Positions 1,707-25,691 of a DNA stretch of 32,000 nt are shown here, in pieces (position 1 is the stretch's first letter; each line of letters opens with the position of its first letter). Source of the stretch: Candidatus Iainarchaeum sp. (GTDB taxonomy: Archaea; Iainarchaeota; Iainarchaeia; Iainarchaeales; CSSED10-239); NCBI GenBank assembly GCA_028700115.1, contig JAQVTI010000009.1, positions 1 through 32,000 of the forward strand, given 5' to 3'. The notes beneath the pieces were generated by a model that saw only the letters and a program-made list of their open reading frames with translations, searched no databases and was not told the DNA's origin. The position numbers and the translations under genes were made by a program.

Positions 1707-1779
1707 TTTTGTGCACAAAAAAAAGTAATTTGTGCATTTGAAAGACACATTTAAAAACTTATTCTTTCATATATATAAT

Positions 1780-3042
1780 ATGGAAAAACAATATTTAGAA
1801 CAGATAGTCTTAGATCAAAAAGAAAGGTTATCTAAATTAAAACAAGGATACCTAAGAGATAAACTTTATAATATAGCTGATATAATTAACCACAAAATAA
1901 ATATAGTTGTAACTGGTCATAGAAGAAGTGGTAAATCAACATTTTTATTACAATGGATGAATAAATATTATAATTCTAATTTCTACTATTTAGATTTTTC
2001 AGATGAACGATTAGTTGATTTTAAAACTACTGATTTTCAATTATTATATGAGATATTTTTAGAACATTTTGGAGAAAAGGATATTTTTTATTTTGATGAA
2101 TTGCAAGGAAAAAAATATGATTGGAATAAATTTGTAAATAGATTATATTCAGAAGGTAAAAGATTTTTTATTACAGGATCTAATGCAGATTTATTAAGTA
2201 AAGAAATATCTACTTATTTAACTGGTAGACATTTTGATATAATGTTATTTCCTTTTTCTTTTAAAGAATATTTGGGGTATAATAATTTTAATAAAAATTA
2301 TAAATCAACTACTGGTAAAGTAGAAGTAATAAAATATTTTAATAATTATATTAAACAAGGTGGTTTTCCAGAAGTTATAGTTTATAAAAATATAGATATA
2401 TTGGATAATATTTATCAAGATGTAATAAATAATGATATTTTAACAAGATATAATATAAAAGAAGAAGTTGAATTTAAAAAAATGAGTTTGTTTTTAATAT
2501 CTAATTTTTCAAGAGAGTTTTCATATACTTCTTTAAAAAATAATTTTAATTTAGGTAGCACTCATACAGCTAAAAAATATGTTTCTTATTTAATAAACTC
2601 ATATTTATTATTTGAATTACCAAAATATGATTATTCTTTAAAAAAACAAGAAACTTATGCTAAAAAAATATACGCAATAGATACTGGACTTATAAATAAG
2701 ATTGCTTTTGGTTTTTCTGAAAATATAGGTAGACTGTATGAAAATTTAGTATTTATTGAACTAAAAAGAAGAAATAAAAACATTTATTTTTGGAAAGATA
2801 AACTTGATCATGAAGTTGATTTTATGACTGTAGAAAAAAATAAAGTAATTTCTTTAATTCAAGTAACTTATGATCTAAGTAATTTAAAGACTAAAGAAAG
2901 AGAAATAAAAGGTTTGCTTTCTGGGTTAGATGAATTTAAATTAAAATCAGGAATAATTATAACTAAAGATTTAGAAAAAGAAGAAAAAATAGATGGAAAA
3001 ATAATAAAATATATACCTTTATGGAAATGGTTGTTAGAATAA
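1780..3042 (+). CDS. AAA+ ATPase, AAA_14/DUF4143 family (paralog 1)
   Basis: Walker A-type TGHRRSGKST and Walker B-like IFYFDELQ. ATG at 1780 is preferred over the track start at 1732 because paralog 17885-19144 begins MDKDYLERIILDQ versus MEKQYLEQIVLDQ here. The C-terminal third is nearly identical between the paralogs. Confidence 0.8.
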   Translation: MEKQYLEQIVLDQKERLSKLKQGYLRDKLYNIADIINHKINIVVTGHRRSGKSTFLLQWMNKYYNSNFYYLDFSDERLVDFKTTDFQLLYEIFLEHFGEKDIFYFDELQGKKYDWNKFVNRLYSEGKRFFITGSNADLLSKEISTYLTGRHFDIMLFPFSFKEYLGYNNFNKNYKSTTGKVEVIKYFNNYIKQGGFPEVIVYKNIDILDNIYQDVINNDILTRYNIKEEVEFKKMSLFLISNFSREFSYTSLKNNFNLGSTHTAKKYVSYLINSYLLFELPKYDYSLKKQETYAKKIYAIDTGLINKIAFGFSENIGRLYENLVFIELKRRNKNIYFWKDKLDHEVDFMTVEKNKVISLIQVTYDLSNLKTKEREIKGLLSGLDEFKLKSGIIITKDLEKEEKIDGKIIKYIPLWKWLLE

Positions 3043-4511: not shown

Positions 4512-4746
4512 AGTATGATTTTGATATCTTTTTTAACAAATTATTAAAAAATAACTAAAATTTAAGGATATATTGTATGAAAATAAGGTTTTTTATATTT
4601 TCCAATAGTTATATTAACTTTTGTTGTTTTTCGGTTTATTTTTTTTTTTTGATAATTTTAAGGTTTTTGAATAGATTTTAACGCTTTTGTTGTAATTTAG
4701 TAAGGTTTATAAACTTATTTAAAATAATATATATTGGAGTAGTTTA

Positions 4747-4878
4747 ATGGAAAAAATTAATCAACAAGTTAGTCAACAAATTAATATAGATAAATTATTT
4801 GTAATTAAAAAATTACCCATAACATCAAAAGAAAAAAATGGGATCTTTGAAGCATGGGTTGAATCCAGTGATTTGTAG
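4747..4878 (+). CDS. candidate precursor peptide of cluster 1 (43 aa)
   Basis: Hand translation gives MEKINQQVSQQINIDKLFVIKKLPITSKEKNGIFEAWVESSDL*. A tggag motif lies 9 nt upstream of the ATG, and the stop lies 6 nt before the PqqD-like gene. Not in the ORF track (too short). Confidence 0.5.
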   Translation: MEKINQQVSQQINIDKLFVIKKLPITSKEKNGIFEAWVESSDL

Positions 4879-4884
4879 ATTTAA

Positions 4885-5136
4885 ATGAAAAAAATTATTT
4901 TTAATAATAGAGAATATTGGTATAGGCAAGAAAAAGAAGATGTTTATATCTTATTTGAAAAAACTAACTATTTTTATCTTGTAAATATGATTATTATTGA
5001 TGTAATAGAGTATTTAGCTAATAATAAAAGTTTATTAGAGATTACAGAAATTATTAATAAAAAATATCATATTAATATAACTGTAGATTTTTTAGTCACA
5101 AAATTAAAAAATATTGAGGGTATTATTAATGAGTAA
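4885..5136 (+). CDS. PqqD-like peptide chaperone (RiPP recognition element)
   Basis: 83 aa. The pattern ..VYILFEKTNYFYLVNMIIIDVIEYLANNKSLLEITEIINKKYHINITVDFLVTKLKNIEGII fits the PqqD strand plus winged-helix layout. Its end overlaps the start of a radical-SAM/SPASM gene. Confidence 0.6.
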   Translation: MKKIIFNNREYWYRQEKEDVYILFEKTNYFYLVNMIIIDVIEYLANNKSLLEITEIINKKYHINITVDFLVTKLKNIEGIINE

Positions 5137-6118
5137 CTATTTTAGAACCCCTTTATTTCCTAGTATTGATCTTAGTACAAAATGTAATCTTAGTTGTATT
5201 CATTGTAGAAATAACAAAAATAAAATAAGTAAAATTCCTTTTAAAAAAGTTATAGAACTATTAGATGAATTTGAATCTTTGGAAGTATTTCATTTAGCTT
5301 TTGCTGGTGGAGAACCATTTTTATTTCCTAAAATTTATGATGTATTAGAATATAGTCAAAAATTAAATGTGCCCAAGGTGACTATCGTAACTAATTGTAC
5401 ATTTATAAATAAAGATAGAATTGATAAATTAGATAATAATAAAATTAGGTTTGCTGTTAGTTTAGATGGACCAAAAGAAATACACAACTTTATTAGAAAT
5501 GCAGATGTATTTGATAAAGTAATAGATAATATTAAATATTTAGTTTCAAAAGGTTTTTTTGTTATGCTAAATTGTACTTTAATGAAATATAATTATAAAT
5601 ATTTCGATGAGATTATCAAAATTGCTAAAAATTTAAAAGTTAATCAAATTAATTTTTCAAAAGTATTTCCTGTACATTCTGAGATTATTAAATTTATGCT
5701 TTCAAAAGAAGAATTAGATGAGTTATATGAAAACTATAGAAAATATTCTGGTGAAGATAGTTTAGTTATATTCTTAGATAAAGGGTATATGGGTTTTCCT
5801 GATGCATATGATTCTGATATTGCATTTTCTATGGGTTGTAGAGCGGGTATTTCTCAAATAAATGTAATGTCGGATGGTTCTGTTGTAGGTTGTAAATTAT
5901 TACCGGATGTTTGTGCTGGAAATATTTATAAAAATACAATTAAAGAAATATGGGATGATAATAATAATTGGAAGTTATTCCGAAATGTTATACAAAATAT
6001 TAATAGTGATACTTGTAAAAAATGTGATTATTTTTATGCTTGTAAAGGTGGATGTAGAGCATTTGCTTATTATATGACTGGAGATATAAATGGTAAGGAT
6101 CCTTTATGTCCACTATAA
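5129..6118 (+). CDS. radical SAM enzyme with SPASM domain (PqqE/MftC-like peptide maturase)
   Basis: CNLSCIHC (CX3CX2C), GGEPFL, and C-terminal GCRAG...VGC...CKKCDYFYACKGGCRAFAY. ATG 5129 with gaggg 8 nt upstream is preferred over the TTG at 5114. Confidence 0.85.
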   Translation: MSNYFRTPLFPSIDLSTKCNLSCIHCRNNKNKISKIPFKKVIELLDEFESLEVFHLAFAGGEPFLFPKIYDVLEYSQKLNVPKVTIVTNCTFINKDRIDKLDNNKIRFAVSLDGPKEIHNFIRNADVFDKVIDNIKYLVSKGFFVMLNCTLMKYNYKYFDEIIKIAKNLKVNQINFSKVFPVHSEIIKFMLSKEELDELYENYRKYSGEDSLVIFLDKGYMGFPDAYDSDIAFSMGCRAGISQINVMSDGSVVGCKLLPDVCAGNIYKNTIKEIWDDNNNWKLFRNVIQNINSDTCKKCDYFYACKGGCRAFAYYMTGDINGKDPLCPL

Positions 6119-7747
6119 ATGATTACTATGAAAACTATTAGTGAGATAATTATAGAATTTATTAAATTTTTAAAAATTGATACTATATTTGGAATTCCTG
6201 GTTCTAATCTAGATTTTTTAAAGTATTTGTCAGAAGATAAAGTAATAAAATTTATTGTAAATAAAGATGAAAAAAATTCGCCTTATATGGCTATGGGGTA
6301 TACTAAATCATCTAATAAAATTAGTTGTTGTTTTGGTAGTGTAGGTGCAGGAGTTTTTAATTTAATTCCTGGCACAATATCTGCTTATTATGAATCTGTT
6401 CCTTTATTAATAATCGGTGGGCAGACTAATTTAAAAAATAAAGGTAAAAATACTTTTCAAGAGGCCTCTGGATGTGCTAGAAGTGTAAGTCAGTTAAATG
6501 AATTTAAAAAAATAACTTTGTACAATTGTATTTTAAATGAAAAAAAATTGTTCCAACAATTAGAAAAAGTATTTTTTAGTTTAAATGATTTTAGATCTGG
6601 TCCGGTATATATTGAATTTCCATCAGAACTTATGAATTTAAAAATTAATTTTAATAAAAAAATATTTTGTAATATGAAAATTAATTTTAATAGATATAGA
6701 TTAGATAAAATTAAATTATATGATGAATCAAAAAAAGTTAATCAATTAATTATTGATTTAAATAAATCTAAAAAACCAGTTATATTAATTGGTAATGGTG
6801 TTAAAGATTCAAAAGAAATTATTAAATTATCATCTAAATTTAGAATTCCTATTTTTTCTACATTTAAAGGAAAAGATAGGGTTACAAATAATTTTAAGTA
6901 TTATATGGGTTGTTTAGGATTAATTGGTAGTTCTATTGGTAATAATTATTTTAAAGAAAGTGATTTGTTAATATCTATTGGATCTAGTTTAAGTCAGTTT
7001 ACTACGGATAATTGGAAATTAATTGATAATAAAAATATTTATAGAATAGACACTATTAATGATGATATAACCAAACATAAGGGGATTGTAATTAAATCAG
7101 ATTATTCTGATGTTTTTAAAAAACTTTTAAGTTCTGATTACAAAGGAAATAATAATATTGTTGAATTAAAACAAAGTATTGATAATGAATTAAATAAATT
7201 TAATAGCCCTAAAATAAATTTAATAAGAAAATTAAGGACTAGTTTATCAAAAGACTCTATAATAGTTACTGAAGATATTTTTTTAATTGGTAAGTATTTT
7301 AAATTTTATAAAAATGATATTAATTTAAATTTTACAAATATTGCTCCTATTGGGTGTGCCTTATCTGGAGGCATAGGGGCTCAAATAGCAAATTCTAAAA
7401 AAAAAGTTATTGTAATTTTGGGGGATGGAGGATTTAACATGAATATTTCTGAATTAAATACAATTATGAATTATAAAATCCCTTTAAAAATTATATTAAT
7501 TAATAATAATGGTTATGGTATAGTGTATAAATCACAAATACATAAATTTAAAAATAATTTTTATACTCAATTTAAAAATCCAGATTATTTTAAATTAAGT
7601 CAATCATACAATTTTACTGCATATAATATAAATAATGTTTTTAAATTATCATTAAAAAAACTTAAAAAAATAATTAATTCAAATAAAACGGAATTAATAA
7701 ATGTAAAAGTAGATATTGACGAAAAAATAGGAATTAAAATATATTAA
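6119..7747 (+). CDS. thiamine-diphosphate-dependent enzyme, acetolactate-synthase-like three-domain architecture
   Basis: N-domain IDTIFGIPGSNLDFL...DEKNSPYMAMGY...VPLLIIGGQ, middle domain KPVILIGNGV, and ThDP-binding GDGGFNMNISELNTIMNYKIPLKIILINNNGYG. Confidence 0.8.
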   Translation: MITMKTISEIIIEFIKFLKIDTIFGIPGSNLDFLKYLSEDKVIKFIVNKDEKNSPYMAMGYTKSSNKISCCFGSVGAGVFNLIPGTISAYYESVPLLIIGGQTNLKNKGKNTFQEASGCARSVSQLNEFKKITLYNCILNEKKLFQQLEKVFFSLNDFRSGPVYIEFPSELMNLKINFNKKIFCNMKINFNRYRLDKIKLYDESKKVNQLIIDLNKSKKPVILIGNGVKDSKEIIKLSSKFRIPIFSTFKGKDRVTNNFKYYMGCLGLIGSSIGNNYFKESDLLISIGSSLSQFTTDNWKLIDNKNIYRIDTINDDITKHKGIVIKSDYSDVFKKLLSSDYKGNNNIVELKQSIDNELNKFNSPKINLIRKLRTSLSKDSIIVTEDIFLIGKYFKFYKNDINLNFTNIAPIGCALSGGIGAQIANSKKKVIVILGDGGFNMNISELNTIMNYKIPLKIILINNNGYGIVYKSQIHKFKNNFYTQFKNPDYFKLSQSYNFTAYNINNVFKLSLKKLKKIINSNKTELINVKVDIDEKIGIKIY

Positions 7748-7759
7748 ATAAGTGATTTT

Positions 7760-8074
7760 ATGAAATATGGTATTGAGTATATAGTTAAAAAAGATTTCTT
7801 AGGTACTATTAAAATTATAAAGAATAGATCTGATTTTAATAAAGTTAATGAAAATGATATTATTTTATTATTAAACACAAGTCCTGATGTTATTTTGTTA
7901 TTTAATAAAATTAAAGGTGTTATTATTGAAATAGGAGGCCAAACATCACATTTAACAATTATTGCAAGAGAGAGTAATATGCCTCTAATTAGATTAAATA
8001 ACGCTAAAGAAATAATTACAGATGGCGATTTTGTAAAAGTAGTTGAGGGTAATATTTATGTTAATGAAAATTGA
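7760..8074 (+). CDS. stand-alone PEP-utilising enzyme mobile (phosphohistidine swivel) domain protein
   Basis: DIILLLNTSPDVILLFNKIKGVIIEIGGQTSHLTIIARESNMPLI...DGDFVKV matches the GGxTSHxxIxARExxxP swivel-domain signature. Confidence 0.8.
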   Translation: MKYGIEYIVKKDFLGTIKIIKNRSDFNKVNENDIILLLNTSPDVILLFNKIKGVIIEIGGQTSHLTIIARESNMPLIRLNNAKEIITDGDFVKVVEGNIYVNEN

Positions 8075-9065
8075 GGTTCTTTGTAAAAAGATAGCTAAAG
8101 ATATATCTATAATACAAAAAGGAGGGGCAATTGAAACTCAGTGGCCTTTTTTAACTTCAGAAGTAGAAAACTATATTGGTGTTGATTTTATCAAACATTT
8201 AAGTAATATATTAGATGAAGCTTTATTAAACAATAATATAACACAAATTGCTACTAAATTGAAATACCCTTCAATGATAACTCAATATATTGCTTTGATT
8301 CATAGTGCAAATGTATTACCTCTTAATAAAAGAATTGAATTAATAACTAATTTAATAAGTATAATAGAAGAATTAAGAATGGACTATTTATGTAATAAAG
8401 GTATTAATATATTGCAAAATTTTGATATTAGTAAATTTTTATCTAATGATATTAAACAAGATATTATTCCTCAAAAGATATCTAGTATTTTATATGCTTA
8501 TACTGAAAAATTATATCCTACTTTAATGCGTTTGTCATTTGAACATCATGGTCCATATATTTTTAATAAAAAAAAATATGTTGTAAAAGAATATTTTAAT
8601 CTTAAAAATCAATATTCAAATATGTTTCCTGTTTTTAACTATGATAATGTTAAAATAATTCAAGAAATAGAAGGAGATTTTAATGTTGATTTTTTTGGGC
8701 ATTCAATAGGAGATTATAAAATAGTTAATTCGATTTTAGTTGTAGATAATGAAATAATTAGTGACACAAATAAATTTTTAGAAGAAATATTAATTAATTT
8801 TATTAATTTAGATAAGTTATTTTTAGAATATACTGTTGAAGATTATGCTAAAAATTTAACAAATGGATTGTTTTATTCTTTAAAACCATTAACTACTTTA
8901 ATTAATAAAGATTGGGTTCCATCTAAAAATATAATTGCTAAATTAAATGGGTTTAAATTATTTTTTCCTAGAGATAAAATTATTAATTATATAAAGTCTA
9001 CAGATATAAATGAAATAGAATTTAAAGTGTACTTAAGTTTTAAAAATATTTTTATTAAAGATTAA
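8058..9065 (+). CDS. unknown-family protein, conserved partner of the swivel-domain protein (paralog of 22952-23833)
   Basis: Overlaps the previous gene. By-eye homology to the cluster 2 protein: CKKIAKDISIIQKGGAIETQWPF vs CNKISKDMFYLCISGSTIHNWPL, and DFFGHSIGDYKI vs SFFGHIFKVEEI. No motif I recognise. Confidence 0.6.
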   Translation: MLMKIEVLCKKIAKDISIIQKGGAIETQWPFLTSEVENYIGVDFIKHLSNILDEALLNNNITQIATKLKYPSMITQYIALIHSANVLPLNKRIELITNLISIIEELRMDYLCNKGINILQNFDISKFLSNDIKQDIIPQKISSILYAYTEKLYPTLMRLSFEHHGPYIFNKKKYVVKEYFNLKNQYSNMFPVFNYDNVKIIQEIEGDFNVDFFGHSIGDYKIVNSILVVDNEIISDTNKFLEEILINFINLDKLFLEYTVEDYAKNLTNGLFYSLKPLTTLINKDWVPSKNIIAKLNGFKLFFPRDKIINYIKSTDINEIEFKVYLSFKNIFIKD

Positions 9066-9067
9066 TT

Positions 9068-9916
9068 ATGAAATATGAAATTCATTTTAATTATAAATGT
9101 AATCAAAATTGTATTTTTTGTAGTGTATTACAACATCCTCAAAGAGATCTAGAATTAAGTGATTTAGATCTAATTTTACCTTTTATTCATAATAATCAAA
9201 TTGTTCAAATTAGTGGAGGAGAGCCTTTATTAAATACAAATTTGATTAAATGGGTAAAAGAAATTAAAAAAAAAACTAGATTTATTTCTTTAACTACTAA
9301 TGGCACTTTATTAAATAAAGATAATTTAAATGAATTAATTAATTTAGGTGTAAATTGTTTTATTATTTCATTACATAGTAATACTATTAATAATTTTAAG
9401 AAAATAACTACAACTGATAACTTTAATAATGTAATAAATTGTTTAGAATTATTTAAAAAAATAAATAATAGTAGCATAAAAGTAATAGTTAATACCGTTA
9501 TTACAAAATATAATATTTCTGAAATTTTCGATTTATTTAAAATGTTACATGAAAAATATGGTTTTGCTAAAATAAAATTATCTTATCCTAGATTTTATAA
9601 ATTTGCAAAATCTGATTTTAATTGTAAAATTCATTTATTGTCATTAACAGATGTTCATTTCTTTTTAAAAGATATAATTAATAAACCTTATTTTGATAAA
9701 CTTATTATAGAAAATATTCCTTCATGTATAATTAAACCTAGTAAAGAATATAGAGACTGGTCTACTAAACTTTTAACAGTAGATGGAATAAAAGATAGTG
9801 TAGATAACACGAGATATTATATGAAAAAATGTGTTACTTGTAATTTAAGATTAAATTGTCAAGGATTTCACAAATATTATAATTATTATTTTGACGATTA
9901 TATTTTGGAAACATAA
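9068..9916 (+). CDS. radical SAM enzyme (second, 282 aa)
   Basis: CNQNCIFC (CX3CX2C), SGGEPLL, and C-terminal Cys cluster CVTCNLRLNC. Confidence 0.75.
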   Translation: MKYEIHFNYKCNQNCIFCSVLQHPQRDLELSDLDLILPFIHNNQIVQISGGEPLLNTNLIKWVKEIKKKTRFISLTTNGTLLNKDNLNELINLGVNCFIISLHSNTINNFKKITTTDNFNNVINCLELFKKINNSSIKVIVNTVITKYNISEIFDLFKMLHEKYGFAKIKLSYPRFYKFAKSDFNCKIHLLSLTDVHFFLKDIINKPYFDKLIIENIPSCIIKPSKEYRDWSTKLLTVDGIKDSVDNTRYYMKKCVTCNLRLNCQGFHKYYNYYFDDYILET

Positions 9917-9968: not shown

Positions 9969-10688
9969 ATGTTTAAAGGAAATATTTCAACTAATTTAAA
10001 ATTTACAAATAAATTAGATAGATTAAAAAAAGAAACTATAGCTTCTAAAAAAATTACTTTTGCAAGTTATCCAAAAAAAGAAGTTGCAATTAAGTATGTT
10101 GATGCTTTTTGGAAAAGATATTTTGATGGAAGCTTAGAAAAATCTTTATCTAAAAGAAAAGATAACCATTTTATTTCTAATTATAATCCAAATGTAAAAA
10201 TTTTTCCTATTTCTCCTACAGTTTCTGTAACTGTAAGAAAAATGAATTTAATAGATGTAAGACCTTATTTCGAAATTCATAAATATTATAAAGAAAAATT
10301 TAAAAATGCAAATTTTAAATATTCTAAATTTGTTTTAACAGATATAATAGATTATAAGAAAAAAGGGGATTTTTATTATGTTCTTGAAAGAATAGTTCCT
10401 TCTATTAGTGTATATGATTTTTATGTGTCAGATTTTAAGGGTTTTAAAGAAAATAGATTTTCTAAATCTTTTCAGAAAAGTTTAGAAAAAGTGGATTTAT
10501 TAAAGATGAAAGAAGATTTAGGTCCAGCATTAAATGAATTAAAACATTTTATTAATAATAATTCTAAATTTAAATTTAGACTTGATAATTCTAATAATAA
10601 TATTATTATAATTGATTATAATCCAGAAACACATAAATTTAAATTTGGATTAATTGATTTTGCTGGTATGAGTTCTAAAAGTTTTTAA
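9969..10688 (+). CDS. putative atypical protein-kinase-fold protein
   Basis: EVAIKYV (VAIK-type beta3 lysine), LDNSNNN (DxxxxN catalytic loop) and LIDFAG (DFG-like). All assigned by eye, and the motif spacing is compatible with a small RIO/Bud32-size kinase. Confidence 0.35.
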   Translation: MFKGNISTNLKFTNKLDRLKKETIASKKITFASYPKKEVAIKYVDAFWKRYFDGSLEKSLSKRKDNHFISNYNPNVKIFPISPTVSVTVRKMNLIDVRPYFEIHKYYKEKFKNANFKYSKFVLTDIIDYKKKGDFYYVLERIVPSISVYDFYVSDFKGFKENRFSKSFQKSLEKVDLLKMKEDLGPALNELKHFINNNSKFKFRLDNSNNNIIIIDYNPETHKFKFGLIDFAGMSSKSF

Positions 10689-10792: not shown

Positions 10793-11947
10793 ATGAATTA
10801 CAAAAATTTTAATCCTTTACTTTTTTTAATGTCTTTAGGTGCTGGGGGTATTTCAATTATTCCTTTTGCGTTTTTACAATATACTTTTTTTAGTTCAAAA
10901 GGACTTGTTACTTTATCTGATGTATTAAGTTCAAGTTTAAGTATGTCTCAATTAGTTTTATTTAATTTTTTATTTATAGTTATGATTGTTTTTGGATTAC
11001 TTCATTTAATTTTAAGTGTTATATTAATAAAACATTTAATTAAATGGATAAAAGAAGGAAGATATAAAGAAATGTTAAATAATCCTTTAAAAAACTCTGC
11101 TCTTTTAGCTCCATTTATTTCTATTATAATGACTTTAAATGTATTTATTGGTCCTATTAGATTTTTTATAAACCCTATTTCAAATAATCTTCAAAGTTTA
11201 ATGATTTATGCATTAATCTTTTGGGGTTTAATATGGTTATTTTTAATGTATTTAGATTTAAAGTTAATATCTATATCTTTTTTAAAAGATTTTGATGTTT
11301 CTAAAATAAATTTCGGATGGCTTTTACATTCTTTTGCATTAGGTATGGCTTCTGTAACTGGTTCTGGAATTGCAGCTTTATCTCAAAATATTTTAATTGC
11401 ACACATTGCTGCATTCTTATCAACAATTTCTTTAAGTTTAGGTTTATTTTTATTAATAGTAAAACTAATAACTTTATTTAAATTCCATTTTGAATCAAAA
11501 GGATTACCTGATAAGCAATTTTTACCTAGTTTTTTAATAGTTATTCCAAATGTAACTTTATTTGCAATAACTTTATTTAGATTAGGTCATTATTTAGAAC
11601 ATGCTTTTTCATTTTCATTAGGAGCTTATTTTTTAGTAGTTATTCTTTTAAGCTTTGTATTTGAAATCTGGTATTTTGGTTTTTCTTTATTTTTACTTAA
11701 AGATTATTTTAAAAAACACTTTTTTAAAAAAGAATTCTATATATCTCAATGGGGGCTTGTTTGTCCAGTTGTAGCTTTTGCTGTTTTGGGTAGTTTTTTA
11801 TATAAAGTATTTGTTCCTAATATAATATTATATATTGTAATAATAGTAGTTTTAATTATTTCAGTTGTTTTGTTTTTTATACTTTTTATAAGACAATTAA
11901 AATGTAGTAATTTTTTAAAAAGTAAAAGTTTTATATGTAAGAATTAG
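10793..11947 (+). CDS. multi-pass membrane protein, possibly TDT/TehA-SLAC1-type transporter
   Basis: About 10 hydrophobic segments. Weak resemblance to TehA-family segments (LPSFLIVIPNVTLFA; SQWGLVCPVVAFAVLG). It is the last gene of the low-GC island. Confidence 0.45.
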   Translation: MNYKNFNPLLFLMSLGAGGISIIPFAFLQYTFFSSKGLVTLSDVLSSSLSMSQLVLFNFLFIVMIVFGLLHLILSVILIKHLIKWIKEGRYKEMLNNPLKNSALLAPFISIIMTLNVFIGPIRFFINPISNNLQSLMIYALIFWGLIWLFLMYLDLKLISISFLKDFDVSKINFGWLLHSFALGMASVTGSGIAALSQNILIAHIAAFLSTISLSLGLFLLIVKLITLFKFHFESKGLPDKQFLPSFLIVIPNVTLFAITLFRLGHYLEHAFSFSLGAYFLVVILLSFVFEIWYFGFSLFLLKDYFKKHFFKKEFYISQWGLVCPVVAFAVLGSFLYKVFVPNIILYIVIIVVLIISVVLFFILFIRQLKCSNFLKSKSFICKN

Positions 11948-14325: not shown

Positions 14326-15747
14326 TTATTTCTTCTTTGTGAAAAATTCAATAGCAACTTCTAGTTCTTTATGTGTTTTTGCATATTCTTCAATTGAAAT
14401 TCCTTTTTTATATGCCTCACATGCCTGAACTAAAGCCATTGCTCCTTCTTTTGTACCATTTGGATGAGCATGACAACCTGCACCCATAGTTGTAATAAAG
14501 TCAACTCCACCCATAACATCAATAAATGGTTTTAATAAAGTAGGGTTAAGTCCTCCTGAAACAATAGGTGTACATTTTTTTACACCTCTCCATTCATCTT
14601 CATCTAAGATAGCTTTGTGTGCATGATCTTTTTCTACATTTTCAATAAAATCTAAATCTTTTTCAGATATTTTACCCCAAGATTGATCAAAGAAAAATCC
14701 TTTTCCATATAAATCTAATATGTTTTTAGCAGCAGTGATGTCTGATTTAGGAGTTCCATCCATTTTTCCAACTCCAGCAGTTCCTGTATGTATCCCAGAA
14801 GCTCCTGCAAGTCTTGCAAATTTAGATAAAACTAAAACTGAAAATCCAAAATCATTTTCTGGTCTTGTAAAAGCACCGTGAGCTGCTCTATGGAAATGTA
14901 TAAAAACATCAGGATATCTTCTTCTTAGAGTTTGAACAGCCATCCATCCTGCAGTAATCCCATCTATTAAAAATGCATATGAACCTTTTTCAAATCCTGC
15001 ATTTTCAATCATTTCACATCTTTTAATCATTGTGTCAAAATCTGCAGCTGAAACATTAAAAGAGTGTACTTTTTTCTTTCCAGTCTCTTTTACTGCCTTT
15101 TCCATTGCGTTTTTTACATGTTTTACCATTTTATCGTATGGACAGAAGTCTTGGTCTGCTTGAGGCTCATCGTTTTTAACAAAGTCTCCTCCACCAACCC
15201 AGAAGTCATAACAAACTTCTGCATATTCTGCTGAAGTTAGTCCCATTTTTGGCTTTACAATTGTTCCTAGAATAGGTCTATTATAAACATCTAAGTATTT
15301 TCTCATATCATCAATTGTGTATGATGGTCCATCAAATTGTTCTAGCATAGAAGGAGGAAACCATAAGTCTAAAAGTTTAAGAGCAGAAACTTCTTTCATA
15401 CCTAAAACATTTCCTACAATGTAAGTTAGTATATTTTGTACATTTCCAACTCTATCAAAAAGTCTCCATGGATATGCAATCCATACAAGTTCTTTTTCTT
15501 GATCTAAGTCATAAACTAAAGCATTCATTTCTCTTGAGAATGCAGTTTCTGTTTGTACTTTAAAATTAGTCCCAGTTGAAGACTCAGCTGCAATTTCTGC
15601 TGCTGCTTGTAAGACATTTAGTCCTTTACCTTCTTTCATTCTAAAAACACAAAGAAGATATTCTCCATTTTTTGTGTTTGGTATATTAAAATTAACATAG
15701 GCTTTTTGTTTTTCATTTAAAGTTTCATATAATTCATTTTTATTCAT
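14326..15747 (-). CDS. rbcL: ribulose-1,5-bisphosphate carboxylase/oxygenase large subunit, form II/III-type
   Basis: AAESSTGTN, GTIVKPKMGL, CYDFWVGGGDFVKNDEPQ, HFHRAAHGA, ARLAGASGIHTGTAGVGKM, TPIVSGGLN. The core is form II-like, with an extra roughly 27-aa segment (KISEKDLDFIENVEKDHAHKAILDEDEWRGVKKC) before TPIVSGG. Confidence 0.9.
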   Translation of the reverse strand: MNKNELYETLNEKQKAYVNFNIPNTKNGEYLLCVFRMKEGKGLNVLQAAAEIAAESSTGTNFKVQTETAFSREMNALVYDLDQEKELVWIAYPWRLFDRVGNVQNILTYIVGNVLGMKEVSALKLLDLWFPPSMLEQFDGPSYTIDDMRKYLDVYNRPILGTIVKPKMGLTSAEYAEVCYDFWVGGGDFVKNDEPQADQDFCPYDKMVKHVKNAMEKAVKETGKKKVHSFNVSAADFDTMIKRCEMIENAGFEKGSYAFLIDGITAGWMAVQTLRRRYPDVFIHFHRAAHGAFTRPENDFGFSVLVLSKFARLAGASGIHTGTAGVGKMDGTPKSDITAAKNILDLYGKGFFFDQSWGKISEKDLDFIENVEKDHAHKAILDEDEWRGVKKCTPIVSGGLNPTLLKPFIDVMGGVDFITTMGAGCHAHPNGTKEGAMALVQACEAYKKGISIEEYAKTHKELEVAIEFFTKKK

Positions 15748-17884: not shown

Positions 17885-19144
17885 ATGGATAAAGATTATT
17901 TAGAAAGAATAATTTTAGATCAGTCTGAAGATCTTAAACAAATAGATTTAGGTTTACCTAGAGATAAACTTTTAGATTTAGATACTCAAATTAAATCAAA
18001 AATAAATATAATAATTACAGGTGTTAGGCGTTGTGGTAAATCTACTTTATTATTACAAATAATGAATAAATATTATAAAAATAAATTTTATTATTTAAGA
18101 TTTGCAGATGAAAGACTTTCAGATATAAAAATAGATGATTATCAAAAAATATATGAAATATTTCAATCAAATTTTAATATGAATAATATATTTTTTTTTG
18201 ATGAAATACAAGGTAAACCTAATTGGGATAAATTTGTTAATAGATTGTATGAAACTGGAAATAAATTTTATATAACTGGATCAAATTCAGAATTATTAAG
18301 TAAAGAAATATCTACTTATCTTACAGGAAGACATTTAGATGTTGAATTATATCCTTTTTCTTTTAAAGAATATTTAAATTTTAAAAAGATTAATTTAGAT
18401 TATAGATATTCAAAAAATTTAATAAAAATAGAAAAAGAACTAAATAACTATATAAAAATAGGTGGTTTTCCACAAGTTGTTGTTGAAAATAATTTAGTAT
18501 TACTTGAAGAAATATATGAAGATATAATTAATAAAGATATTTTATTAAGATATAATTTAAATGATGTAGCTATTTTTAAAAAAATAGCATTATTTTTAAT
18601 ATCAAATATATCAAAAGAATTTTCATATAATTCTATTAAGAAAATGTACGATATAGGTAATTCTGATACTGTTAGAAATTATGTTTATTATCTTAAAAAT
18701 GCTTATTTATTATTTGAATTACCTAAATATGACTATTCTTTGAAAAAACAAGAAAGTTATTCTAAAAAGATTTATGCTATAGATACTGGTTTAATAAATA
18801 AGTTGGCTTTTTCTTTTTCTGAGAATATAGGTCGGCTTTATGAAAATTTAGTTTTTATAGAATTAAAAAGAAGAAATAAAAGGATATATTTTTGGAAAGA
18901 TAAATCTAATTATGAAATAGATTTTATAATTTTAGAAAAAAATAAAGTGACTTCTTTAATACAAGTTGTATATGATTTAAGTGATTTAAAAACAAAAGAA
19001 AGAGAAATAAGAGGCTTAATTTCTGGTTTAAAAGAATTTAAGCTTAAAGAAGGTATAATAATTACAAAAGATTTAGACAAAAAAGAAAAAATAGATAATT
19101 TAACTATAAAATATATACCTTTATGGAAATGGTTATTAGAATAA
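17885..19144 (+). CDS. AAA+ ATPase, AAA_14/DUF4143 family (paralog 2)
   Basis: TGVRRCGKST Walker A. Same length and end (KYIPLWKWLLE) as 1780-3042. Confidence 0.8.
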   Translation: MDKDYLERIILDQSEDLKQIDLGLPRDKLLDLDTQIKSKINIIITGVRRCGKSTLLLQIMNKYYKNKFYYLRFADERLSDIKIDDYQKIYEIFQSNFNMNNIFFFDEIQGKPNWDKFVNRLYETGNKFYITGSNSELLSKEISTYLTGRHLDVELYPFSFKEYLNFKKINLDYRYSKNLIKIEKELNNYIKIGGFPQVVVENNLVLLEEIYEDIINKDILLRYNLNDVAIFKKIALFLISNISKEFSYNSIKKMYDIGNSDTVRNYVYYLKNAYLLFELPKYDYSLKKQESYSKKIYAIDTGLINKLAFSFSENIGRLYENLVFIELKRRNKRIYFWKDKSNYEIDFIILEKNKVTSLIQVVYDLSDLKTKEREIRGLISGLKEFKLKEGIIITKDLDKKEKIDNLTIKYIPLWKWLLE

Positions 19145-25544: not shown

Positions 25545-25691
25545 TTAATATCCATCTACATATTCATCAGCACCGTGTGCTGTTTTTCTAACTAAATCAA
25601 AATAGATATTGTCTTTATCTAATTTATTTTTTTTAAGTAATTCATAATTTTTAAACCTACATTTTATTGCATTTGATTCAATTTTAGCCAT
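25545..25691 (-). CDS. candidate precursor peptide of cluster 2 (48 aa)
   Basis: Base-by-base hand translation gives MAKIESNAIKCRFKNYELLKKNKLDKDNIYFDLVRKTAHGADEYVDGY*. ggagga lies 8 nt upstream of the ATG, and the stop lies 8 nt before the rSAM start. Not in the ORF track. Confidence 0.5.
   Translation of the reverse strand: MAKIESNAIKCRFKNYELLKKNKLDKDNIYFDLVRKTAHGADEYVDGY

Follow-up and report, generated by a model that had tools for sequence, protein, structure and literature searches.

A 43-codon gene as the probable precursor-peptide gene of a rare RRE/radical SAM-SPASM pathway in DPANN-type archaea

The peptide gene and its neighbours

We analysed a window of 32,000 nucleotides from Candidatus Iainarchaeum sp. 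(contig JAQVTI010000009.1, positions 1 to 32,000), which has a G+C content of about 20%. An earlier note on this DNA had pointed to a short open reading frame directly in front of a PqqD-like gene. We observed that this ORF lies at 4747-4878 on the plus strand, running from the ATG at 4747 to the TAG at 4876-4878, and that it consists of 43 codons plus a stop and translates into a 43-aa peptide, exactly as had been claimed. A Shine-Dalgarno-like TGGAG is present at 4735-4739 (+), its GGAG ending 7 nt 5' of the ATG, and 6 nt separate the stop of the peptide gene from the ATG at 4885 of the next gene, which encodes a protein of 83 aa; the earlier description of the upstream box and of the 6-nt gap was borne out on the sequence. 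After the preceding in-frame stop, 4747 is the earliest start codon. The peptide had no match in Pfam and NCBIfam searches. A scan for sigma-70 promoters and intrinsic terminators gave nothing above shuffled sequences (these models are ill-suited to an archaeon), and ARAGORN found no tRNA genes in the window.

The genes of the cluster downstream of the peptide share its strand and are packed closely. The 83-aa protein (4885-5136, +), a PqqD-like peptide-recognition protein (RRE) by its AlphaFold2 fold, its Foldseek matches and the weak Pfam matches of some orthologues, is followed by a radical SAM/SPASM maturase at 5129-6118 (+; Pfam Radical_SAM 1e-21, SPASM 1e-8), and then by a ThDP-dependent acetolactate-synthase-like enzyme at 6119-7747 (+). 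Next come a free-standing PEP-utilizer swivel (phospho-His) domain at 7760-8074 (+; Pfam PF00391, 1.4e-13) and its partner, a 335-aa protein at 8058-9065 (+) that matched no family and that we call X. A second radical SAM enzyme, with a MoaA/HxsC-like core and no SPASM domain, is encoded at 9068-9916 (+). The radical SAM-SPASM protein was under the cut-off of every NCBIfam family (AhbD, TIGR04053, NirJ2, WgkB, MftC, PqqE, DynA), so that no chemistry can be transferred to it by family membership. The solved structures nearest to it were those of anSME, PqqE and CteB.

Two ORFs further along were set aside. The 239-aa ORF at 9969-10688 (+), labelled 'kinase-like', had no family match and no homologue in the orthologous loci, and is not part of the core. 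The membrane protein at 10793-11947 (+) matched the NCBIfam family TsoY (NF047643) with 317.7 bits against a cut-off of 250; it is without a counterpart in any orthologous locus and is therefore probably outside the pathway.

A second cluster, which we call cluster 2, occupies 25691-21256 on the minus strand and begins with a 48-codon ORF (25545-25691, -). The peptide encoded there ends in ..ADEYVDGY and served as the comparator for the motif described below. Cluster 2 has distant homologues of the radical SAM-SPASM protein, X, the swivel domain and the second radical SAM enzyme.

Conservation of the peptide gene and of its cluster

The radical SAM-SPASM protein was used as the anchor of the orthologue search. 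We found an orthologue in one of the 60 related genomes searched (G014, 66% identity) and in none of the six other genomes of the genus, and six more 90%-identity clusters, at 50-71% identity, among 5.8 billion proteins. A scan of genome representatives gave a single true orthologue, L023, which is the same place as in G014; the other 79 matches were generic radical SAM-SPASM genes at 29% identity or less. The DNA of the orthologous loci (L004/L023, L103, L104/L105, L106, L107, L108 and L109) was then compared with the window. A short ORF of 41-49 codons was seen directly 5' of the gene for the 83-aa protein in all 8 distinct orthologous clusters, and gene callers had annotated it in every contig fetched.

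The peptides followed the consensus [DE][KE]L[FY]x[IV]xxLPIT-x3-K-x-[GR]-I-[FY]-E-[AS]-W-[VIA]-E-[SN]-x-D, in which ten alignment columns (L, P, I, T, K, I, E, W, E, D) were invariant. Their N-termini varied in both length and sequence. After the final D there was either a single L or I or, in L103-L105, a stretch of 13-22 extra, mostly acidic residues. Identity was 54-68% for the peptide (over 26-42 aligned residues), 50-71% for the radical SAM-SPASM protein and 37-59% for the 83-aa protein; by these values the peptide appears about as conserved as the radical SAM-SPASM protein and more conserved than its 83-aa neighbour. The tails of the L104 and L105 peptides are of the form (DDDG)n, the two contigs differing by one repeat.

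We further estimated substitution rates by the Nei-Gojobori method over the ungapped, aligned block of the peptide, the sample being 8 distinct variants. Between pairs of different variants, pS was 0.38-0.95 (synonymous sites are near saturation) and pN was 0.03-0.46; for the window and the L107 peptide the values were 0.75 and 0.12. The third-position drift on which the earlier note had made its reading depend is thus present, pS being far above pN. The frame of the ORF at 4747 was the sole frame open across all orthologous loci, and a GGAGG, GGAG or GGTG box was found 5-9 nt 5' of the peptide start in 7 of the 8 loci. Judged by its pattern of substitution, ORF 4747-4878 codes for protein and is subject to purifying selection.

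The search was also run in reverse, with the peptide as the only anchor. A degenerate DNA pattern encoding only LPIT-x6-I[FY]E[AS]WxE was looked for in 241 million JGI metagenome records, and it led to three loci (L139-L141). The genes for the 83-aa protein and the radical SAM-SPASM protein were downstream in all three, and the ThDP enzyme and the second radical SAM enzyme were also present wherever the contig was long enough. The comparison of homologous loci that the earlier note had proposed therefore found the short ORF in 8 of 8 loci anchored on the radical SAM protein and in 3 of 3 anchored on the peptide. A profile of nine peptides, searched against 1.84 billion representatives, matched three peptide clusters (defined at 50% identity) with E-values of 3e-18, 8e-18 and 2e-13. 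Two long matches of this profile, one to a TPR/CHAT repeat protein and one to a beta-propeller repeat protein, were spurious repeat matches. The reverse test and the profile search together led us to conclude that the peptide family is real, closely linked to the cluster, and rare.

These data bear on the simplest alternative, namely that the ORF arose by chance in an AT-rich intergenic spacer and that its Shine-Dalgarno-like box and its motif likeness are coincidental. The window does contain many ORFs of 30-50 codons, and the G+C content of the genome is about 20%, but a chance frame would hardly be kept in 8 distinct variants with such an excess of pS over pN while the alternative frames are closed. 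The profile matches down to E 3e-18 and the linkage of all three peptide-anchored loci to the cluster likewise argue against it, and we consider chance to be refuted, with practically no probability left to it.

We also evaluated the remaining genes of the cluster. An orthologue of the ThDP enzyme was found in every locus long enough, and the second radical SAM enzyme (35-53% identity) was co-conserved in all orthologous loci, its place within the cluster varying. The swivel domain and X were co-conserved in the three loci with contigs reaching that far (L023, L103 and L106). The peptide is thus linked to the RRE-fold protein, the radical SAM-SPASM protein, the ThDP enzyme and the second radical SAM enzyme in all loci with enough contig. 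No exporter, protease or immunity gene was conserved among the orthologous clusters. In the phylum sample, the X family was present in 12 of 215 genomes, the window's own genome being counted.

Some loci carried additional genes. In L104 and L105, a gene for a short-chain dehydrogenase (L104:1048-1800; L105:937-1689) lies between the second radical SAM gene and the peptide gene. In the metagenomic orthologue L103, MazG-like, Schlafen-group-3-helicase-like and DNA-methylase genes come after the cluster (L103:6555-10040), which gives this region a defence-island-like look.

A related cluster was seen at L131:2386-11008 (G192:C11), with a radical SAM-SPASM protein 32% identical to that of the window. 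Its further genes encode two glycosyltransferase-like proteins, an AMP-binding enzyme, X, the swivel domain, a methyltransferase and a stand-alone PPDK_N. The stand-alone PPDK_N ATP-binding domain (Pfam 1e-77) is encoded close to the swivel domain and X, with the methyltransferase gene between, so that all three dikinase parts are present there as separate genes. The nearby PPDK_N gene supports the view that the swivel domain and X are part of a multi-component ATP-dependent phosphotransferase. In the window's own genome, four large PPDK_N proteins are encoded on contigs C22, C2 and C38 of G000 (L142-L147), with open frames of 711-1246 aa; this is many for a genome of about 0.96 Mb. These four proteins could donate phosphoryl groups to the free-standing swivel domains.

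The 83-aa protein, the peptide layout and the aromatic-x-acidic motif

To the 83-aa protein we applied AlphaFold2 with an alignment of 8 sequences. The model, with a pLDDT of 92.4, consists of four strands followed by three helices. When it was compared with the PDB using Foldseek, the top match was TbiB1 with its leader peptide (probability 0.87), and the next were McbB, TruD/LynD and SkfB, with weak E-values of 0.2-3; the best matches of the model are thus all RRE-containing RiPP proteins. Pfam PqqD matched weakly in 3 of the 8 orthologues, with a best E-value of 0.0023. The window's own 83-aa protein had no Pfam or NCBIfam match, and when a profile of the RRE alignment was searched against PDB sequences, the sole match was one expected by chance (E = 1). 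As modelled, the 83-aa neighbour has an RRE fold, and the known role of this fold is the binding of precursor peptides.

The peptide itself can be divided into three parts. Residues 1-14 (4747-4788, +) are variable in the alignment, with pLDDT below 50 for residues 1-11. They are followed by the conserved segment DKLFVIKKLPIT (residues 15-26; 4789-4824, +), the putative leader or RRE-recognition segment, in which LPIT is invariant. The putative core SKEKNGIFEAWVESSD (residues 27-42; 4825-4872, +), so assigned from the alignment and from the recurrence of its motif, has K30, I33, E35, W37 (codon 4855-4857), E39 and D42 as invariant residues. Since the 28-residue block formed by the last two parts is conserved about equally throughout, the boundary between leader and core is not defined by the data.

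In four loci the peptide gene and the RRE gene are in one frame, and the read-through product was therefore modelled, with stops replaced by Gly; the 3-residue linker of this model is artificial, and just 4 sequences went into it. Residues 1-11 of the peptide were disordered in this fusion model (pLDDT below 50), residues 20-23 (I-K-K-L, directly before LPIT) formed a beta-strand (pLDDT about 72-77), and the core was a low-confidence helix (pLDDT 62-67). The only sheet in the model is that of the RRE. Within a model that contains an artificial linker, a peptide strand of this kind would be expected if the leader docked on the RRE in the canonical way. The layout of leader and core suggested in the earlier note fits the peptide, which has a variable N-terminus, then a conserved segment ending in LPIT with a predicted strand, and then the invariant aromatic/acidic segment.

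The earlier note had also likened the EAWVES near the end of the peptide to the DEYVDG of the cluster-2 peptide, and had proposed [DE]-x-[WY]-V-[DE]-[SG] as a conserved C-terminal motif. We observed that [DE]-x-[WY]-x-[DE] was kept, whereas the V and [SG] positions vary: the former is V/I/A in cluster-1 peptides (those orthologous to 4747-4878) and V/A/G/F in those of the cluster-2 type, and the latter is S/N or G/K/R. The C-terminal placement was upheld only in part, since the motif is not at the extreme C-terminus in all peptides (those of L103-L105 add their acidic tails after it). The likeness to the cluster-2 peptide stood at the level of the motif but did not extend to homology, for which BLASTP gave nothing and hhalign a probability of 0.1. 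Overall homology of the cluster-1 and cluster-2 peptides was rejected for this reason, the likeness being that of a short motif only. A collinear relation of the cluster-2 peptide with the off-frame end of the ORF plus the RRE N-terminus was rejected as well, as hhalign of the RRE profile against the cluster-2 peptides was empty; the off-frame reading of the ORF end met stops or had no conservation in the orthologues.

Peptides of the cluster-2 type were found in four further loci, where they end in ..EDEYADKY, ..SDVYGDKY, ..CDQYFDKY and ..TEDYVDRY, all of which are [DE]-x-Y-x-D-x-Y endings. In the cluster-2-type peptide at L135:2283-2500 (-) (G200:C33), a long stretch of D-Y-S/D-Y-N repeats comes before the ending ..NDSWATEDYVDRY; its repeated aromatic-x-acidic units, (DYS)n, are like those of multi-motif triceptide precursors. 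In L110, a short ORF ending in ..DGDLWCD is followed by an RRE with a weak Pfam PqqD match and then by a radical SAM-SPASM gene, and in L131 a short ORF (L131:3262-3375) ending in ..CREMWGEGST is accompanied by an RRE that is detectable as PqqD by Pfam. The radical SAM-SPASM proteins encoded next to these other motif peptides are only 27-32% identical to that of the window (about 30-32% for L110 and L131). The pattern [DE]-x-[WY]-x-[DE], or more robustly an aromatic-x-acidic unit, thus recurs in four separate peptide families, cluster 2 included. Among 333 unselected ORFs of 30-70 aa from the same loci, 8 had the motif in the last 14 residues, and about 7 of these 8 were the peptides described here.

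We infer from these sequences that the motif would be the site of modification, and its presence across four unrelated peptide families makes this a concrete prediction for the site of chemistry. As the cluster-1 motif is not fixed at the C-terminus and the terminal Tyr of the cluster-2 peptides is invariant, the two pathways probably treat the C-terminus differently.

It may be asked whether the small protein is a substrate at all, or rather a structural or regulatory partner of the enzymes, such as a small subunit or a chaperone-like adaptor binding to the 83-aa protein. That its C-terminal half is modelled as a helix, and that the whole 28-residue block is conserved and not the leader alone, would agree with a partner, but the helix is of low confidence (pLDDT 62-67), and precursors typically differ in the length of their N-termini and C-terminal tails, as these peptides do. 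The RRE fold of the neighbour, known for precursor-peptide binding, and the unrelated peptides with the same aromatic/acidic motif that precede other radical SAM-SPASM genes also speak for a substrate. We consider a mere partner role to be very improbable.

The proposed pathway and its relation to known systems

Together, the data favour a reading in which the precursor peptide encoded by ORF 4747-4878 belongs to an RRE/radical SAM-SPASM pathway that is RiPP-like, rare and so far undescribed, and we put the probability of this reading at about 0.8; the chemistry of the pathway is one that we infer. Its hosts are DPANN-type archaea with tiny genomes. As with RRE-recognised RiPP precursors in general, the peptide is encoded adjacent to a co-conserved maturase and a co-conserved RRE with the PqqD/RRE winged-helix fold.

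In the proposed mechanism, the segment [DE][KE]L[FY]x[IV]xxLPIT would dock on the 83-aa RRE as an added beta-strand; presented by the RRE, the invariant core K-x-[GR]-I-[FY]-E-[AS]-W-x-E-[SN]-x-D would then be the target of the radical SAM-SPASM enzyme. This enzyme would most likely take a side-chain hydrogen and cross-link the invariant Trp with an acidic residue at a distance of two positions, the candidate cross-links being W37-E39 and E35-W37. Such chemistry is suggested by analogy with the aromatic-to-Cbeta links formed at aromatic-x-x motifs in triceptides, darobactin and dynobactin and with the Glu-Tyr link of PqqE, and the invariant K30 would also allow other links, for example Lys-Trp as in the products of streptide/WgkB systems. 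Tailoring or processing of the product would then fall to the split phosphotransferase (swivel domain plus X), the ThDP enzyme and the second radical SAM enzyme. The swivel domain and X may plausibly serve to activate the acidic/aromatic core at a carboxylate or a hydroxyl. The end product could be either the peptide in modified form or a small molecule cut out of it. What is new here is the precursor family and the set of tailoring enzymes, the front end of RRE and radical SAM-SPASM protein being classical.

The mycofactocin system (MftA, the RRE MftB, and MftC) has the same gene order, with a short peptide, a free-standing PqqD-type RRE and a radical SAM-SPASM protein; the modified end of its peptide is also strongly conserved, and the L131 relative resembles it further in having glycosyltransferases. 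However, the peptides described here have ..ESSDL, ..ENNDI or a long acidic tail at their C-terminus and not ..G-V-Y. The lack of ..GVY together with the variable C-terminal tail rules out a C-terminal Tyr decarboxylation as the chemistry. The MftC model (TIGR03962) gave only 107.8 bits on the window's radical SAM-SPASM protein, against a cut-off of 265, and in place of the MftD/E/F set the cluster has the ThDP enzyme, the swivel domain plus X, and a second radical SAM enzyme.

In the PQQ system (PqqA, PqqD, PqqE), an RRE and a radical SAM-SPASM protein again act with a short peptide whose key residues are acidic and aromatic, and PqqE is among the solved structures nearest to the window's enzyme. 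PqqE forms a Glu-Tyr C-C bond. The spacing differs, being E-x-W-x-E here and E-x3-Y in PqqA; the PqqE model (TIGR02109) reached 89.6 bits against a cut-off of 381, and PqqB, PqqC and PqqF are absent from the cluster.

These two systems bear on the nature of the end product. The peptide could be a sacrificial scaffold for a small cofactor or metabolite, in which only the invariant E-x-W-x-E would enter the product; radical SAM cross-linking would be followed by excision and then by processing, for which the split dikinase and the ThDP enzyme would serve. Such a scaffold would refine the best explanation as to the end product and does not contradict it. The core is almost invariant across clusters with enzymes only 50% identical, and the cores of PqqA and MftA are likewise almost invariant, while antimicrobial cores are hypervariable. 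Other features also point towards a scaffold, among them the order of peptide, RRE and radical SAM-SPASM genes as in mftABC, the presence of MftC and PqqE models among the better sub-threshold matches of the radical SAM-SPASM protein, and the glycosyltransferases of L131, comparable to MftF of mycofactocin. In addition, enzymes of a metabolic type (the ThDP enzyme and the phosphotransferase) are co-conserved and an exporter, an immunity gene and a leader protease are not. Against this, the distribution is very patchy (0 of 6 other genomes of the genus, and an orthologue of the radical SAM-SPASM protein in 1 of 60 relatives searched) and the peptide is rare (three 50%-identity clusters in 1.84e9 proteins), which agrees better with an accessory trait than with a cofactor. 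Furthermore, no candidate cofactor-dependent enzyme is co-conserved and no peptidase is present for excision of the product. We regard the scaffold as unlikely, though it is the chief sub-hypothesis under the precursor-peptide reading.

A more far-reaching version is quite unlikely. In it, a Glu-x-Trp-x-Glu scaffold would give rise, in DPANN archaea, to a new small molecule or cofactor by the action of a three-part phosphotransferase of dikinase type, a ThDP enzyme and two radical SAM enzymes, and would be a Trp counterpart of the Glu plus Tyr chemistry of PQQ. If this were true, the aromatic-x-acidic unit would serve as the code by which a larger and so far undescribed family of peptide-acting enzymes, with the swivel domain and X, recognises its substrates.

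Returning to the precursor-peptide reading, we compared the peptide with the substrates of other radical SAM-SPASM enzymes. Triceptides are made by three-residue cyclophane-forming radical SAM-SPASM enzymes, which act on aromatic-X-X motifs and form aromatic-to-Cbeta links (PMC11499958). The aromatic-x-acidic unit (W-x-E, Y-x-D), the radical SAM-SPASM maturase and the (DYS)n repeats of one cluster-2-type peptide are all reminiscent of them, and in the cluster-1 peptides the aromatic-X-X motif takes the form W-[VIA]-E with the first and third positions invariant. No curated 3-CyFE model was among the best 25 NCBIfam matches of the window's radical SAM-SPASM protein. A ThDP enzyme, a split dikinase, a second radical SAM enzyme and DPANN hosts were features that we did not find described for triceptides.

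DarE, DynA, StrB and WgkB are radical SAM-SPASM enzymes as well, and in their products Trp is cross-linked with a residue at a distance of two positions or a few. The invariant Lys 7 residues before the Trp is the feature of the present peptides that resembles those of the darobactin/dynobactin and streptide/WGK systems, but the core sequence is unrelated. The models of WgkB (NF050035; 111.4 bits against 650) and DynA (NF041298; 79.9 against 450) both stayed below threshold on the window's protein, and these enzymes carry or use different leader-recognition arrangements.

Searches of the full-text literature (RiPP and radical SAM together with PEP-utilizing, thiamine, dikinase and DPANN) gave no description of such a system, and neither an acetolactate-synthase-like ThDP enzyme nor a split PEP-synthase-type phosphotransferase was found reported in any RiPP route. 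The pathway would thus join a standard RRE/radical SAM-SPASM front end to tailoring enzymes that are unusual for RiPPs. Its hosts have DPANN genomes of about 1 Mb, which are thought to be poor in secondary metabolism. With its probable substrate gene identified, an enigmatic enzyme cluster becomes experimentally approachable.

Elsewhere in the window there is a pair of ATPase-like paralogues, at 1732-3042 (+) and 17885-19144 (+), with products of about 420-436 aa; the two genes lie 16 kb apart. They are visibly alike from end to end, and one of them is just upstream of cluster 1. The 473-aa ORF at 14326-15747 (-) is RuBisCO large subunit-like by eye; RuBisCO large-subunit genes are typical of the nucleotide-salvage pathways of DPANN and CPR organisms.
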